A DNA stretch of 62,763 nucleotides, filler included. It is 6 parts of 6 records of this genome, joined end to end, with 100 filler letters (N's around TTAATTAATTAA, not from the genome) between each part and the next. Parts side by side here need not be neighbours in the genome. Positions count along the whole stretch, not along the records: positions 1 to 29,829 come from SRR20825010_5299; 5 more parts are not named here. One strand, written 5' to 3'. This document shows positions 22,501 to 29,140 of this stretch, piece by piece (position 1 is the stretch's first letter; each line of letters begins with the position of its first letter). Under the pieces are notes generated by a model. The model did not search any database and was not told where the DNA came from. It saw only the letters and a program-made list of their open reading frames with translations. Position numbers and translations under genes: made by a program.

Positions 22501-22819
22501 CCTCGTCGTCCTCTTTTGAGTTATCTACCGCTTCTTCCTCATCCTCGGACACGAAACGACCGGGAACAACCTTGCCGTCTTCACTATGCGGCGGAATATA
22601 GCGGGTGCGGGCGTCGCCTGTCCTGTCGTCCAGGAGCCTCAGAGAAACACCTGCGGCAAGTGCGACAATAACCAACACACCCAGCGTTTTCTGGAGCCGC
22701 GAGATATCCTGCCGCCTCTCCTCTTCCGTCTGATCCTTCTTCAACCGCCAACGCAGCCAAAAAATGACCGCCACCAACGGTATCAACAACAAAGCGATCC
22801 GGAGTATTATGATAGTCAT
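22478..22819 (-). CDS. Small membrane protein (DUF6111-like)
   Basis: Two TM helices then YIPPHSEDGKVVPGRF; ATG overlaps the nudL stop; typical position between nudL and cca. Confidence 0.75.
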   Translation of the reverse strand: MTIIILRIALLLIPLVAVIFWLRWRLKKDQTEEERRQDISRLQKTLGVLVIVALAAGVSLRLLDDRTGDARTRYIPPHSEDGKVVPGRFVSEDEEEAVDNSKEDDEGGEENPT

Positions 22820-23463
22820 ACTGAAACCTTCCCTAGCCCTGCAGGCGCGCGATGTCGCGAAGCCTCCATCACCTCGCATAGGTTCACCAGCATAGCTGCG
22901 GTAGCCCCCCAGATGAAAAAATCTCCATAAGGCATAGCATAATACTCGCGCCGTGCACCCTGCCAAACAGCACTTTGTTTTCTGTGATTTTCCCGGTTGA
23001 GAATAAAATCAAGCGGCACCTCAAAAGCCGCATCAACTTCCGTCTCCTGAAGAACCAGTTCAAAGCCTGGCTGAACCAACGCAACAACCGGCACAATCTC
23101 AAAGCCTGTGCCTGTGCGGTATGTATCAAGAAAGCCACAAACCTCAATATGGCTTGCAGCTAAACCAATCTCTTCTTCAGCCTCCCTAAGGGCCGCAGCA
23201 ACAGCATCAGCATCGGTGTCATCGATTTTGCCGCCAGGGAAGCTGACCTGACCAGCGTGCTTGCTTAAATGTTCAGTGCGTTTGGTCAGCAGGATAGATG
23301 GCCCGTCTACGTGATCAACTATTGGTACCAACACTGCGGCATCCCGAATAGGCTTATCTTTGTGCGCGATTAGTTTGGCATCACGGTTCAGGTCAAAATC
23401 GGATCGCCGCCCCCTCGCAGCCGGATTGTCATCCTTCAATGCGTCAGCTAGCCAGTTCTTCAC
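22816..23463 (-). CDS. nudL: CoA pyrophosphatase (Nudix)
   Basis: AAVLVP, LLTKR, HAGQVSFPGG, ALREAEEEIG, IWGATA. Confidence 0.92.
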   Translation of the reverse strand: MKNWLADALKDDNPAARGRRSDFDLNRDAKLIAHKDKPIRDAAVLVPIVDHVDGPSILLTKRTEHLSKHAGQVSFPGGKIDDTDADAVAAALREAEEEIGLAASHIEVCGFLDTYRTGTGFEIVPVVALVQPGFELVLQETEVDAAFEVPLDFILNRENHRKQSAVWQGARREYYAMPYGDFFIWGATAAMLVNLCEVMEASRHRAPAGLGKVSV

Positions 23464-24047
23464 GCATCACCATCCTCAAGCTCACCCAAAGAGAATACAG
23501 CCCCTGCACTTGCAATCGCCAGACGAGCTTTCCCGTCATCCTTTACAACTTCTGCATGGTCGACCAACTCATAGAACACATTGCGTGAGATAAGGGCATC
23601 CAGCCTGCCGCGCACGCGGATATAGGGCCGAGGTTCTTTGGTGTCGTCATCGACCACCACAGTAATAGGATGATCCCCATCAGCGATAACCTCATCGCCA
23701 ACATTCGTTGTAAACTTCAGTAATTGCTGGCCGTCGTCCTCAACAATTTCCACCTGGGTGGCAATGAAGTGCGCATCTTCAACAGTAATGCCTATCTTCT
23801 CAACAGGTGTAACAAGGTAGGTCTTACCGTCACTATCTTTCCGAAGCACCGTTGAAAATAGTTTGACCATACGCTTACGGCCAATGGGCGTGCCCATATA
23901 GAACCAGGTCCCATCGCGGGCGATACGCATGTCAATGTCACCACAAAACTCGGGGTTCCATTTATCAACGGGTGGAAAACGTTGCCCCTCCACATGCTTG
24001 ATAATGTCCTCAAGTCTGATCTTTGCGTTATTGTTGCCAGATACCAT
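23460..24047 (-). CDS. DUF1285 domain protein
   Basis: PPVDKWNPEFCGDIDMRI.RDGTWFY, LVTPVEK; AGGAGG RBS. Confidence 0.9.
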   Translation of the reverse strand: MVSGNNNAKIRLEDIIKHVEGQRFPPVDKWNPEFCGDIDMRIARDGTWFYMGTPIGRKRMVKLFSTVLRKDSDGKTYLVTPVEKIGITVEDAHFIATQVEIVEDDGQQLLKFTTNVGDEVIADGDHPITVVVDDDTKEPRPYIRVRGRLDALISRNVFYELVDHAEVVKDDGKARLAIASAGAVFSLGELEDGDA

Positions 24048-24114
24048 TAATGTCCTCCTGTCCCTATTGTATAGCAAGGGGCAGGTCATACAATACGGTG
24101 GCTGCTATAATATT

Positions 24115-24690
24115 TTATGCTGCTACGACCGGCAGGCCGCGGTCATAGCTCCCAGCCATTGCGGCAGTTGGCATCGCAGGCACTTTATCGGCAGGTATAA
24201 TTTTACCGACACCCGGCAACGAAGGCAGCGCTGTGTTTTGCCGCACCAAAAGGCGCCGAGCATCTTTACCGCCGGGCAAGGTAATGTAGTTTGGCAGCAC
24301 ACTCTTGAAGCCGAAGCGACAGTAATAATCGATATCGCCCACAAGTAGAATACGGCGATGCCCGGCCGTCGACGCAGCCTCAAGCGAACGGTTCATCAAC
24401 TGGCTACCGATGCCATACTTCTGCATGGAAGGAGCAACAGCAAGCGGCCCAAGTAGCAGAGCACCTTCGCTGGCGCCCCGCAACAGGTCTTTGATGAGCA
24501 CTGGCCAGAAGCGTACCGTGCCAACAATACGACCTTCCGCGCGAGCTACATGCGAGAGCGACGCAACCGGCGCAACTGTTTCCCTGAGGCTATAAGAAGA
24601 TTTGTTGAACCGGTCCGGTCCAAAAGCCGCATCGAGGAGCGCTTCAATCTGCACTCCATCAAAGGGCCGTTCTTGATCAAAATTGATCAT
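24115..24690 (-). CDS. GNAT N-acetyltransferase (YhbS-like)
   Basis: AAFGPDRF.KSSYSLRE, LLLGPLAV, GIG..LM, LVGD..YY.RFGF. Confidence 0.9.
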   Translation of the reverse strand: MINFDQERPFDGVQIEALLDAAFGPDRFNKSSYSLRETVAPVASLSHVARAEGRIVGTVRFWPVLIKDLLRGASEGALLLGPLAVAPSMQKYGIGSQLMNRSLEAASTAGHRRILLVGDIDYYCRFGFKSVLPNYITLPGGKDARRLLVRQNTALPSLPGVGKIIPADKVPAMPTAAMAGSYDRGLPVVAA

Positions 24691-24748
24691 CGGCTTTTCC
24701 CATATCAGCGGTGCAAAACGCACCAAGAGCATCACAACAGGTTTAAGA

Positions 24749-24817
24749 TCAGGATCTTACGTGTCGTCGCATTCGGCTATGCCGGTTGATATGAGTGGTC
24801 TTTACCATGGCTTCCAT
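24749..24817 (-). CDS. Putative leader peptide MEAMVKTTHINRHSRMRRHVRS (alternative start 24808)
   Basis: Short ORF ending 58 nt before the GNAT start; Arg codons CGG, CGA, CGA-CGA, AGA; below the ORF-track cutoff. Confidence 0.55.
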   Translation of the reverse strand: MEAMVKTTHINRHSRMRRHVRS

Positions 24818-24935
24818 GACAGTTTTGTGTTCAAGAAGTTGCGTATTTATAATTACTTACAACCAACTTCAAGTGACATTTTCTTTCGGCATTCATCACC
24901 CTGGGTTTTGAATTAATACATCATCAAACCCTGAT

Positions 24936-24972
24936 AAAAAGAGGCGGTAGCCCGGGGAGAGCTACCGCCTTT
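24936..24972 (-). terminator. Intrinsic terminator after the porin gene
   Basis: AGGCGGTAGC/GCTACCGCCT stem followed by a U-tract on the minus strand. Confidence 0.8.
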
Positions 24973-24994
24973 ATCGCTTGCACCCGAACAGGGA

Positions 24995-26293
24995 TTACCA
25001 GTCGATCTGGAACCTCAGTGTCAGAGCATCAGCGTCGTTCTCACCGTCCGCGCCGTTCGCGGTCACGTTGAAAGCCTTGTCAATCGTCATATGAGCATAA
25101 TTGGCAGTGAAGCGTGTGTGTCGGTTCAGGTACCAGTTCACTCCTAAAAGGTAAGTATCTTGCTCACCTCCGTACACACCGTCCCCCGTCAGGTCGATCC
25201 GGTCAAAGCGCGCTGCAATCTGCCAGGCACCCATGCCGCCCTTATGGACAGGGTTATTCACTTTGGGGCGATCCCATGCGCCTTTAGCAAGGTTGAGAGT
25301 TTTCGTTTCGCCTGTAATAAACCAACCAGCTTCAACATACCCACCCCAGAGAGTGGCGTTGCCGCCACCCACGGCGGCGTCTTTGGCCGTCAGATTCGCC
25401 CATTCAGATGCAACGTGAAATGCGCCATATTGCATCGCGCCTTCCAGAACAAACAGCGTGTCATCACCCGTAATTGTACCAGTGTCTACAAGTCGGCCAG
25501 CAAGGTGTGAGTGCGTGCGTTGGCGGTATCGGTATGCGCCATCACCGGCATCTTGCACACGAGCAGACGCACCCAATAGCCATTTACCATCTTCAAATTC
25601 CTGACCATAAGTCGCGCGGCCCGCAAAGAGGTAACCCTCATCCTCAAACCCAGCGTCATTTTTCCCGCGGAAAGCCCCGAGGTTTAAGGTCCATGTGTCT
25701 CCACCGTTTTTGTAGCCAATACCGATATTGCGCCCCAGGCCAAAGGCGTCCGTGAAGGATGCGCGTTCCATAAATGTAACGTGGCGGCTAGAGGTCATCT
25801 CCTCTAGCGACACGGGAGGTTTATAATGACCAAACTTCCATGTGCCTGTGGAGGTCTTATATTCAATGATCGCGTCGGCGAGGCTAACTTCGTTTCCCGC
25901 AAACTCAGCCTCAATGACATATTTAACGTCTTTCCAAGCCTTACCTTCAACACCGATACGCGCTGCACGCATTTCGGTGGCCTTGACATTCATACTGTCG
26001 TCGCCGTCGGTCACCCATCCTGCATCAGCCATGATCCGGCCCCGCAGGTTAACCTCAAAAAGACCATCGTCCGTTGCGAGACCAAAGGCAGGTTCTTCCT
26101 TCGAAATTTTCGGGCGCTTGGTCTCCACCTTATCAGCTGCCGCCTGCTTTGCTTCCAGTTCCTCAATACGCTTGGCGAGCGATGCAAGTTGTTGCTTCAG
26201 CTCGTCGATTGATTGTGCGCCAACTGGCTGTGCCAGAGCTGCAGTGATTGCTGTTGCGCCAAGCAACACGGACAGTCTTTTCCGGTTCATCAT
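24995..26293 (-). CDS. OprO/OprP-family phosphate-selective porin
   Basis: Signal peptide plus coiled coil; RAARIGVEG, SLEEMTSS...TFMERA, GAWQIAARFD, GVNWYLN; C-terminal Trp. Confidence 0.88.
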   Translation of the reverse strand: MMNRKRLSVLLGATAITAALAQPVGAQSIDELKQQLASLAKRIEELEAKQAAADKVETKRPKISKEEPAFGLATDDGLFEVNLRGRIMADAGWVTDGDDSMNVKATEMRAARIGVEGKAWKDVKYVIEAEFAGNEVSLADAIIEYKTSTGTWKFGHYKPPVSLEEMTSSRHVTFMERASFTDAFGLGRNIGIGYKNGGDTWTLNLGAFRGKNDAGFEDEGYLFAGRATYGQEFEDGKWLLGASARVQDAGDGAYRYRQRTHSHLAGRLVDTGTITGDDTLFVLEGAMQYGAFHVASEWANLTAKDAAVGGGNATLWGGYVEAGWFITGETKTLNLAKGAWDRPKVNNPVHKGGMGAWQIAARFDRIDLTGDGVYGGEQDTYLLGVNWYLNRHTRFTANYAHMTIDKAFNVTANGADGENDADALTLRFQIDW

Positions 26294-26649: not shown

Positions 26650-28701
26650 TCAGATGGTACGAACATCTGAGAGGAATTTATCCACTTCGCGCTTGATGCT
26701 TGCGGCCAGCAGCTCCAGCTGTTCTGCCGCAGACATGACATCTGCTGACGCAGCCCCTGTCTTCTCAGCACCAGTCGCTACCTCATGAATTTCCGCCGTT
26801 ACGCGCTGAGTACCCTCAGATGTGAACTGAACGCTTCTGCTAATCTCATTGGTTGTCGCCTGTTGTTCTTCCACAGCGGATGAAACATTGAGCATAACAT
26901 TGTTAAGACGCTCATTTGCTTCTCCAATGGTGTGAATAACACCCACAGCAACCTGTGTGACGTCCTGCATATCGCCGATTTGCGAGGTAATCTGCTCTGT
27001 CGCCCTTGCGGTTTGGTTCGCCAGGCTCTTAACCTCACTCGCGACAACAGCAAAGCCTTTACCAGCCTCACCGGCCCTAGCGGCCTCAATGGTAGCATTG
27101 AGAGCAAGCAAGTTAGTCTGCTCTGCAATATCATTGATCAGTTTGACAACGTCTTCAATCTGACGGGAACTGTCAGACAGCTTACCAATTGCTTTTCCGC
27201 CCTCATCCGAGGCTGCAACCGCTTCTCGGGAAATTGCGTTCGCATTTTGCATCTGCTGGTTCACCTCTGCGATAGAGGCTGCGAACTCCTCGATTGCTGC
27301 AGCCATTGCAGAGACATTGTCCTGCATCTGTGTAGACGCCTCGGTAACCGACATCACCTGCCGACCAGTAGTGTCGGCTACGTCAACCATCTCGCCCGCC
27401 GTGTCACGCATGCGAACAGAAGCTGTATCCAGATTTTCGACAGCATCGCCAATCGTGCTATCGAACGTACCGACAAGAACATTCATACGCTCCGAACGTT
27501 CTTCGCGCCTGCGGGTTGCCGCCCGTTCAGCCTCAACTTTTTCCCGCTCTTCCGCTGCACGACGCTCTGCTTCCTCACGGTCCCGTTCTGCCTGCTGCTC
27601 AGCCTGCACCCTTGCATCGGCCTCAAGACGCACACGCTCCGCCGCGCTATCTCGTAGCTTTTCGGCGGTACGCGCCATGCTACCCAGTTCGTCACGGTAA
27701 CTTGTCCCGGGTACATTGGTCTTAAAATCACCACCCGCTATGCCACCAAGAGCGGCCTCCAAGGCTTTAACCGGACCAACCGTGGTACGTACCACTGCCC
27801 ACGCTACGCATATTGCCAGGGCAATAATAACGACTGAAATAACCACAAGACTGGTGAACGCGCTGGACCGAGCGGCAGCAGCTTTCTCAGAGTAGCGAAC
27901 TTGTTCGTCACTCGCGATTTTCGCAACAACTTCAAAGGGCTGATCTGTCCGGGCGTAGATATCACTCAGAAGTTTGAGGGACCGCGCATTCGCTTCTCTG
28001 GTTTGCGCGTATGCTTTAAAACTCGCCACATATGTACTAAGCTTGTCAAGAATGTCACTCTTCACGTCGTCACCAAACCTGATACTCGCAAGCCGGGTTC
28101 TGAACTCTGTATCTCTTGCATCAATGCGGTCCACATATTTGGGATCGGCCCGCATGATGAAATCCTTCTCATGACGCCGCATCATCAGCATCAGAATTTC
28201 AAGCTTATCGTCCGTATGCTCTTCAAGAGTTTCCTCAATTGAATGCACCGCCGCGCGCAACTCGCCTTGCCGACCTGAAGTTTCGTCAAGACCTATTTGC
28301 ACATACCCTGCCACAACTGTTTTGAACTGTTGGCCGTGTTCCAGCAATATCTTGCTGAGTTGATCGGCAGAGGTTTGCAAACGCTTGTTTGGGCTCATTG
28401 TTTTCAGCTCAGCCAGTGTAGCCCGCGCTGCATTCATGGCAGTTTGATATCTGTCCGCATAGGATAGGTCGAGCCTCAGGAGAAAATCTTTCTCATTCCT
28501 CCTGATTTCGAGGGACTGACGCTCCAATTCTTTTTCAAGAATACTGACTCTACTATATCTATCAGCATCCTCTTGTGCGCTATTGATCACGCTGGAAAAG
28601 CTCAAATAGGAAAAGAGTATTGCGAGCAACCCCAATACGGCGACACCTGCCAGCAAAAATACTCGCACAGAAATTGAACGGTTCTGAAGCCAACTGAGCA
28701 T
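26650..28701 (-). CDS. Methyl-accepting chemotaxis protein
   Basis: Two TM helices flanking a periplasmic helical domain, [34 protein letters not shown]; start placed at MLSW after GAAGGA. Confidence 0.95.
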
Positions 28702-29140
28702 AGAAATTCCTTCCATCCACCAAGATGCCCCCACAGCATATGATCATTGTTCCGCTATATCCCGACAGGACAGGCTGGTTGGTCTGCAGTCTTATACATT
28801 GAGAAACTAACTAACATCCCAATGCAGGTCCTGCTCTGGCCCCAGCTGTCCCCTCGTCCCTCGACGAGCGATGTGTCAAGTATCTAGCTGGCAAGGGTTA
28901 ATTTTTGGGTAATGCTACGGCTGAGTGAAAAATTTCATAAAAATGTAACAATGATAGACAGATGGTTAATACGCTCTCATTAAGGGTATTTAATAAACAA
29001 TAAGGTGTTTTGATTTCACACTCAAACTGTCACGCGTTATATTTACGCTGCCTTTATAAATCCAATTAAACTCTCGCACTGTTTTTAGATGCGAATTGCA
29101 TGAAACTTCCTTCATAAGCAATAGAGGGTCGGAGGTTAAA

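Follow-up and report, generated by a model that had tools for sequence, protein, structure and literature searches.

A short leader open reading frame ending in tandem arginine codons, probably an arginine-sensing switch, precedes a YhbS-like GNAT gene in Kordiimonas

We analyzed a 62,763-nt stretch of DNA, here called the window, which consists of six parts of six records of one genome joined end to end with 100 filler letters between each part and the next. Positions 1 to 29,829 come from SRR20825010_5299 and include, on the minus strand, a gene for a YhbS-like GNAT family N-acetyltransferase and the leader that precedes it. The leader carries a short upstream open reading frame (uORF) that ends in a run of arginine codons and overlaps an RNA fold reaching the GNAT ribosome-binding site (RBS). 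Both the uORF and the fold are conserved, the element is linked exclusively to GNAT, and it recurs in other alphaproteobacteria. A regulatory leader ahead of this gene is very likely. That the element acts in cis, is conserved, and has a translated ORF can be held with considerable confidence, and a connection to arginine is plausible. The leader is probably a previously undescribed arginine-sensing switch. We put the full model, a ribosome-dependent translational attenuator that senses the supply of arginyl-tRNA, at a probability of roughly one-half, with the sensing itself our interpretation. A first-pass annotation of the region had proposed a leader peptide with rare arginine codons, likened to the ornithine-sensing arrest peptide SpeFL, as a controller of the GNAT gene. 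Its core, a leader ORF with a structure placed to control the YhbS-like gene, was borne out by conservation in orthologous loci and by a fold at the RBS; kinship to SpeFL or to the speF RNA was not.

The regulated gene (24115 to 24690, minus strand) encodes 191 amino acids (aa) with matches to the Pfam families Acetyltransf_1, Acetyltransf_7, and Acetyltransf_9, all above their cut-offs (PF00583, 38.8 bits; PF13508, 37.9 bits; PF13527, 28.9 bits). Among related genomes, 58 of 61 have the gene, and 30 loci were fetched for comparison of leaders. Alignment A1 contains 30 sequences, and alignment A2 contains 28, leaving aside one identical to the window (L001) and two too divergent to align (L026 and L027). 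The GNAT start was placed at ATG 24690. Because tblastn alignments start at query residue 1 in 30/30 orthologous loci, an in-frame GTG at 24735, offered by the ORF finder, was rejected as the conserved start.

The minus strand of the window contains the uORF with the arginine codons that the first-pass annotation had listed: CGG (24784 to 24782), CGA (24775 to 24773), tandem CGA-CGA (24769 to 24764), and AGA (24757 to 24755). Two starts had been considered. ATG 24808 is invariant in 28/28 leaders, whereas the in-frame ATG 24817, from which the uORF encodes MEAMVKTTHINRHSRMRRHVRS, is not conserved. From the conserved ATG, the uORF (24749 to 24808, minus strand) runs to a TGA at 24751 to 24749 and encodes the peptide MVKTTHINRHSRMRRHVRS. 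Its invariant core is the tandem CGA-CGA of codons 14 and 15 (24764 to 24769, minus strand), present in 30/30 leaders of A1 and in frame with the ATG in 28/28. Reading from the ATG to the end of the Arg run, none of the 28 leaders has a stop in this frame, whereas the other two frames are open in 1/28 and 16/28.

Counted from the conserved ATG, the leader peptides are 13, 16, or 19 aa long, contain four to six Arg codons each, and have the consensus M-(V/L/I)-(K/N)-(T/S)-x-H-I-N-R-x-x-R-(L/M)-R-R-R-stop. In 19 leaders a single codon separates CGACGA from the stop, and in 9 leaders there are four; the stop may be TAA (16 uORFs), TGA (8), or TAG (2); the small ORF ends 57 to 72 nt before the GNAT ATG in orthologous loci. 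The first-pass annotation had suggested looking for an H..R..RR uORF in orthologous leaders; of 31 entries (the 30 orthologous loci and the window), the regular expression H-[I/T/P]-x-[R/K/G/W]...stop recovered 27, among them the window and the identical L001. The four entries that it missed have related ORFs ending in ...MRRRLAF (L012), ...SLRRR (L026), ...GLRRRKGQTF (L027), and ...RLRRR (L029). The 13-aa forms (L015 and L023) lack exactly 9 nt, an in-frame deletion of the P1 hairpin described below. Third-position entropy exceeds that of the first and second positions at codons 3, 4, 8, and 16, whereas codon 2 keeps its third base and varies in its first. Based on this difference between codons, we consider the constraints on the uORF to be mixed, part coding and part RNA. 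Every orthologous locus of the genus that was examined has the uORF in conserved form, and it is more than a chance ORF.

CGA accounts for 82 of the 132 Arg codons in 26 uORFs (the others being 24 CGG, 17 CGC, 8 AGA, 1 AGG, and 0 CGT) but for only 9.8% (93) of the 947 Arg codons in 39 long ORFs of the window, where CGC makes up 26%, CGT 21%, CGG 18%, AGA 18%, and AGG 7.2%. Those long ORFs contain 55 in-frame Arg-Arg pairs, none of which is CGA-CGA. The earlier description of the leader's Arg codons as rare thus holds for CGA, and AGG is also infrequent, but CGG and AGA are not rare at ∼18% each; among the leader's Arg codons, only CGA is rare by window usage. The accompanying remark that neighboring genes mostly use CGC and CGT went too far, since together these make up 47% of Arg codons. 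CGA is read by the inosine-containing major tRNA-Arg via slow I-A wobble, and the codons predicted to respond most strongly to starvation are those that the major isoacceptor reads. Rare Arg codons adjoining a stop are known pause sites in Escherichia coli.

RNAalifold, the minimum free energy (MFE) fold of the window, and separate MFE folds of the 28 leaders all gave one architecture, a conserved fold of ∼100 nt in which three hairpins (P1, P2, and P3) are enclosed by a closing helix (P0). P0 is the main RNA feature and was absent from the first-pass annotation: in it, the His-Ile-Asn codons of the uORF pair with UGAUAUGG, adjoining the GNAT Shine-Dalgarno (SD) sequence. In the MFE and RNAalifold structures, its 5′ strand, CUCAUAUCA (24787 to 24795, minus strand, as are all elements of the fold), consists of the last base of codon 5, the His and Ile codons, and two bases of the Asn codon. 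Its 3′ strand, UGAUAUGGG (24699 to 24707), also evident from counts in A2, contains the GG of the SD-like GGA of GNAT (24700 to 24698). This triplet is GGA in 27/28 aligned leaders (AGGA in one of these) and GAG in L020. P0 is nearly invariant, with 94.2% of cells paired across the 28 leaders, and masking of the RBS by P0 is a prediction with comparative support.

Within P0, the P1 hairpin of the MFE folds (CGGC-AUA-GCCG, 24774 to 24784, with strands at 24784 to 24781 and 24777 to 24774) holds Arg codons 9 and 12. P2 (24729 to 24770), seen when MFE folds were computed for the 28 leaders one by one, is a long hairpin in which the Arg run GCGACGACA pairs with UGUUGU..UGC. Its outer stem is 77.6% paired, and its variable inner hairpin (24759 to 24744) contains the uORF stop codon. 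P3 (24709 to 24725) is the GGTGC/GTTTT/GCACC hairpin that the first-pass annotation had noticed at 24724 to 24710, now recognized as one of the three hairpins inside P0; it shows covariation, as both bases change at 3/5 pairs (for one of them, the counts include CG:14 and UA:8). Overall, 85.6% of 660 cells pair in A2, versus 27 to 48% with the 3′ partners slid by 1 to 3 columns, and the A2 covariation score was reached by 0/500 shuffles; the tested structure was written down from these same sequences, so both the pairing and the covariation figures lean toward it. Independent support for P0 came from a locus of a distant family (L098, family f95), where CAC AUA AA specifies these three residues and the downstream UUUAUGUG strand pairs with them, so that each of three synonymous changes is matched on the partner strand.

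An A-rich block of the 5′ leader, Box A (GAACACAAAA..GUCAU or GUAAC, 24816 to 24834, minus strand), occupies nearly invariant columns in A1 and A2. It sits 8 to 26 nt before the uORF ATG in nearly all Kordiimonas leaders, outside all predicted conserved helices, and may serve as a binding site or may help initiation where the SD is poor, as a standby or enhancer site. Pairing of Box A with the P2 3′ strand as an anti-structure was rejected, as by eye just ∼5 A-U-rich pairs are possible. In the window (24811 to 24838, minus strand) and its closest relatives, the MFE fold also pairs CUUCUUGA with UCAUGGAAG, which would cover the nonconserved ATG 24817 and the GGAAG preceding the conserved ATG; the wider genus lacks this pairing.

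A covariance model of the leader (R1, 147 positions) gave one strong match in the window (136.8 bits) and two chance-level matches (E = 0.53 and 1.3). Five complete or near-complete genomes each had one match, located at GNAT, and G021 had one extra weak match (E = 0.195). At E ≤ 0.01, the model was detected in 29 of 151 sampled genomes of the order, comprising 25/25 in the genus, 29/38 in the family, and 0/113 in other families.

The Arg run itself extends further. Of 20 orthologous loci from further afield, 6 carry CGACGA in the scanned stretch upstream of GNAT, all within an ORF with the Arg run at or near its end (e.g., ...PSCLRRR-stop in L062 and ...CDVRRR-stop in L076). A class-wide sample had GNAT at E ≤ 1e-25 in 69/201 genomes, and the 260 nt upstream were examined for 69 of the 72 matches outside G001. 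We searched these for CGACGA followed by at most one further codon and then a stop, on the sense strand, and found this pattern, in leaders that are shorter, in 9/69 loci from other alphaproteobacterial families (5/29 and 4/40). Elsewhere in the 29 loci the pattern appears 3 times in 185,703 nt, a background of 0.0042 per 260 nt, and the binomial P for 5/29 is 1.4e-7; the lineages belong to different families but are only approximately independent. All four f95 genomes have the pattern (...LHINRRR, ...MIHMRRR twice, and ...DALRRR), and further terminal-run peptides outside the family end in ...TRQDRRR, ...FSKERRR, and ...AFLRR. Leader peptides outside the Kordiimonadaceae share just the C-terminal Arg run before the stop. 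The first-pass idea of a conserved sensor peptide is at odds with this pattern, and because only the run is kept, we favor codon sensing over a metabolite-sensing peptide. The run is wired differently in different lineages: L096 and L110 have it paired directly to the GNAT SD-AUG strand, and in L086, L124, L143, and L145, it forms a P2-like hairpin. In MFE folds of 16 pattern-bearing leaders, at least half of the Arg run is paired to a downstream strand in 13, and this strand is within 45 nt of the predicted start in 11; these distant leaders were chosen for carrying the pattern, and the folds are single-sequence predictions.

We infer translation of the uORF, a signal that consists of arginine supply, an output at the level of translation, and activation of GNAT by stalling. 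In the resting fold, P0 would pair codons 5 to 8 of the 16- to 22-codon uORF with the strand that abuts and overlaps the GNAT SD, hindering GNAT initiation. A ribosome translating the uORF would melt P0, P1, and P2 and would meet Arg codons 9 and 12 and then the invariant CGA-CGA(-CGN) run beside the stop. When charged tRNA-Arg is scarce, ribosomes would dwell or queue on the leader, P0 would be kept open, and GNAT translation would rise. A terminator scan found no intrinsic terminator between the uORF and GNAT, and because there is no terminator-like site in this interval, the leader was filed as the translational type.

Several observations weigh against this model. A purely thermodynamic model, in which hard constraints stand for the ribosome footprint, gave a mean unpaired probability for positions −16 to +3 of the GNAT start of 0.41 in free RNA and of 0.41 to 0.42 when the A site was at the run, whichever of its three codons was chosen, so that the RBS was not opened; with the A site on codon 9, where the footprint covers the P0 5′ strand (codons 5 to 12), it was 0.56. 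Because a footprint on the CGA run leaves the RBS unopened, the simple version, with the RBS helix melted by a ribosome stalled on the run, was dropped for Kordiimonas. RBS opening in this genus would need a pause at either of Arg codons 9 and 12, or a ribosome around which the closed helix cannot form for steric reasons, or queuing, in which one ribosome stalls at the run and another waits behind it; 16 codons are just enough for two ribosomes. The direct-pairing variants (L096 and L110) make "stall equals on" the natural sign, and Kordiimonas is less simple. An SD-like triplet precedes the uORF ATG in just 16/28 leaders. The nucleotide invariance of CGACGA could come from RNA pairing alone, and P0 and the Arg run are almost invariant, leaving little covariation within the family.

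With respect to known systems, the leader combines a conserved short ORF containing tandem Arg codons with a conserved structure, overlapped by that ORF, that is predicted to mask an RBS. Leader-peptide attenuators are textbook regulators for His, Trp, Leu, Thr, Phe, and Ile/Val, and in the classical cases stalling on the leader peptide reports tRNA charging. Like the his, trp, leu, thr, and phe attenuators, the leader has a run of codons for one amino acid overlapping an alternative RNA structure. Their output is an intrinsic terminator on a biosynthetic operon for the same amino acid, whereas here a masked RBS is predicted, there is no terminator, and the gene encodes an uncharacterized acetyltransferase. 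The proposed output is closer to erm/cat translational attenuation (ErmCL), in which a ribosome stalled on a short leader ORF melts an RBS-sequestering hairpin. The erm/cat stall needs an antibiotic and a specific nascent peptide, whereas the candidate signal here is Arg-tRNA supply. By analogy, the leader would work like a translational leader-peptide attenuator with an erm/cat-like output and a his/trp-like input.

We found no description of an Arg-run leader before GNAT, or of such an arginine attenuator in bacteria, in searches of the open full-text literature, and to our knowledge no arginine attenuator of this kind has been reported. Rfam 15 contains no model for the leader RNA. A term search of a paper on upstream RBSs in Sinorhizobium (PMC13285730) found no mention of an acetyltransferase or of Arg codons. 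The nearest precedent for sensing of arginine supply by the leader is Salmonella orf34, in which pausing at two consecutive Arg codons, rare or frequent, is reported to pass arginine availability to speF (PMC6386406).

Genomic context gave some substance to the ornithine/polyamine link raised in the first-pass annotation. An ornithine/arginine decarboxylase lies directly upstream of the orthologous GNAT in 8/69 class-level loci (3/29 and 5/40), one of them behind an Rfam speF leader. The decarboxylase of L091 was identified by Pfam Orn_Arg_deC_N. In L104 (genome G345), the order is an ar45 small RNA (48.8 bits), a speF leader (RF00518, 78 bits), ornithine decarboxylase (ODC), and the orthologous GNAT; L104:22-284 and L104:356-2025 were recorded as an ODC-GNAT operon under an orphan speF RNA. 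Downstream of the GNAT that is paired with ODC in G253, the opposite strand encodes a RimK-like ATP-grasp gene (L091:93-1055, plus strand). In Kordiimonas G001, the ODC ortholog is ∼730 kb away from the leader and GNAT, and no Arg-run uORF was seen before the ODC genes of Kordiimonas and G243. Taken from gene neighborhoods, the association of GNAT appears to point to arginine/ornithine/polyamine metabolism in general.

The identity of the GNAT is less specific. Its closest proteins are named "GNAT family N-acetyltransferase" (Kordiimonas sp., K. aestuarii, K. lacus, K. lipolytica, K. pumila, and K. aquimaris) or "predicted N-acetyltransferase YhbS," which places the window in Kordiimonas (Alphaproteobacteria), and the nearest solved relatives by sequence, 4zbg_A (3.7e-18) and 4rs2_A (2e-8), are both uncharacterized acetyltransferases. 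ArgJ was over its cut-off in 5/5 genomes (G001, G016, G201, G187, and G243) and ArgA in 0/5 of the same genomes; ArgJ without ArgA leaves room for the GNAT as an N-acetylglutamate synthase but is normal for alphaproteobacteria. Small unrelated GNATs act as N-acetylglutamate synthases in other bacteria (PMC4490483). Assignment of this GNAT to the short-form N-acetylglutamate synthases was rejected, as NCBIfam NF005921 scored 21.6 bits against a cut-off of 180, reflecting generic GNAT similarity only.

Of the competing explanations, constitutive translational coupling without amino acid sensing survives best, although we consider it rather unlikely. The uORF would then be a ribosome-driven unwinder of P0 that sets a fixed low GNAT level, with CGA retained because the RNA must pair or because it builds in a slow step. 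This would fit the requirement that P0 be melted for uORF elongation and GNAT initiation alike, the opening of the RBS by a footprint over codons 5 to 12 regardless of the Arg run, and the role of CGACGA as one P2 strand. However, two to four Arg codons of the same type recur before the stop with different partner strands (UGUUGU, CGUCGUC, and UCGUCGUCGG) and, in many families, with unrelated N-terminal peptides, which argues for the codons themselves.

We also regard as unlikely a ligand-dependent arrest peptide of the SpeFL or TnaC kind, in which arginine, ornithine, or a polyamine would be trapped by the nascent HI(N/R)R...RRR together with the exit tunnel; elongation, or release at the stop codon, would then be blocked, and the stalled ribosome would open the GNAT RBS. 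The Kordiimonas HINRxxR, or HIRRHCR in L008, L009, and L011, resembles the HIRRXXH ornithine loop reported for SpeFL, and all three stop codons are used in the uORFs, as is also reported for SpeFL (10.1101/604074). The f95 locus L098 keeps H-I-N-R with different codons (CAC AUA AAC) while the partner strand covaries, and the ODC linkage in 8/69 loci would suit such a sensor. Nevertheless, P0 pairing also accounts for the His-Ile codons, and just the terminal Arg run is retained outside the family. The peptides contain no Phe and no 20-residue effector domain, ending 6 to 11 residues past His-Ile, and a Pfam hmmscan of three leader peptides at E ≤ 10 returned 0 families, DUF2618 (PF10940) included. 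A broader version, doubtful to the same degree, would make the leader an alphaproteobacterial counterpart of SpeFL or of the fungal arginine attenuator peptide, arrested by free arginine, ornithine, or a polyamine through its basic C-terminal peptide and the slow CGA codons beside the stop. The GNAT would then be a missing arginine or polyamine enzyme, either the anaplerotic N-acetylglutamate synthase of ArgJ-only alphaproteobacteria or an ornithine or polyamine acetyltransferase acting with ODC.

The comparison with SpeFL can be drawn more closely. The gammaproteobacterial SpeFL/orf34 (DUF2618) is likewise short, with Arg codons in succession and a motif of the His-Ile-Arg type, and translation of this leader ORF is reported to unmask a downstream ornithine/polyamine gene through a stalling-dependent mechanism. 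SpeFL is reported to have ∼34 aa, a Phe-rich effector domain, and HIRRXXH at residues 10 to 16, to precede an ornithine decarboxylase gene, and to be Rho dependent (10.1101/604074). In contrast, the leader studied here encodes a peptide of 13 to 22 aa with a C-terminal Arg run beside the stop, no effector domain, and GNAT downstream; the window peptide has HINRHSR rather than HIRRXXH, and the leader peptides have no Phe past the motif. With the motif partly present, no effector domain, no profile match, and a different downstream gene, the leader is not a member of SpeFL/DUF2618, and the kinship suggested by the first-pass annotation is not supported.

The leader is also not the Rfam speF RNA. 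RF00518 is similar in being an alphaproteobacterial leader tied to ornithine decarboxylase, and it heads the ODC-GNAT pair of L104, but it is a different RNA; it is reported as an RNA with no known ligand (PMC1273637). A search for it, which the first-pass annotation had put forward, gave no match in the window: Rfam models, RF00518 included, had 0 matches at gathering thresholds, and RF00518 had none at E ≤ 10 in positions 24500 to 25100, with L104 as a positive example scoring 78 bits. RF00518 was not found in G001, G016, G021, G243, or G201 either, a weak result because the control genomes gave no match as well.

Transcriptional control through Rho, with leader ribosomes shielding the nascent RNA as in speFL or tnaC, is improbable. 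In its favor, there is no intrinsic terminator between the uORF and GNAT, ∼58 to 72 nt of untranslated RNA follow the uORF stop, and both known enterobacterial relatives in mechanism use Rho. Yet no C-rich, G-poor tract is evident in the window's spacer of 58 nt, most of which folds into P2 and P3, and P0 is placed exactly at the RBS, where it needs no Rho. A riboswitch or protein-binding RNA with an incidental ORF is highly improbable, for although a three-hairpin junction closed by an RBS helix is typical of expression platforms, the frame is open and the ATG invariant in 28/28 leaders, the indel is in frame, some variation is of the synonymous type, the junction and loops vary while the most conserved bases are codons, and no Rfam family matches.

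Turning to the surrounding genes, the upstream Porin_O_P gene (24995 to 26293; Pfam E = 6.9e-57) ends at a terminator-like hairpin and T run at 24942 to 24970 (minus strand; consensus scan, 12-bp stem with 8 GC pairs), as the first-pass annotation had indicated. A subthreshold Rfam match to tfoR at 24932 to 25013 (minus strand; 20.9 bits versus a gathering threshold of 70; E = 0.01) overlaps this terminator. It and the other subthreshold matches in 24500 to 25100 lie on or near the porin terminator and were taken as chance similarity to terminator hairpins. A possible sigma-70-type promoter (TTGAAG ... TATAAA/TAAATA, 24846 to 24872, minus strand) was read from the sequence and partly conserved upstream blocks; a promoter scan found none at its own thresholds, and inspection by eye led us to reject reading these conserved blocks as sigma-54 or extended −10 elements. 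Upstream of the porin gene, a 694-aa ORF (26650 to 28734, minus strand) resembles by eye a methyl-accepting chemotaxis protein with a coiled-coil signaling domain. Downstream of GNAT lie DUF1285, a NUDIX hydrolase, and then another long ORF. The window's order of GNAT, DUF1285, and NUDIX (23460 to 24089 and 22816 to 23463, minus strand) is partly retained in the distant family f95, where DUF1285 follows GNAT in L098 (L098:435-1031). L088 has a NUDIX gene close by.

The element is compact and easily mutated. Its different wiring across alphaproteobacterial families, with the Arg run pairing either to a local strand or to the RBS, is a natural series for how codon-level stalling would be turned into RBS opening. 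Two independent genomic associations, the Arg-codon leader and the ODC operon, lead toward arginine/ornithine/polyamine metabolism, and together they would provide a first functional handle on the widespread, uncharacterized YhbS/COG3153-like GNAT family.

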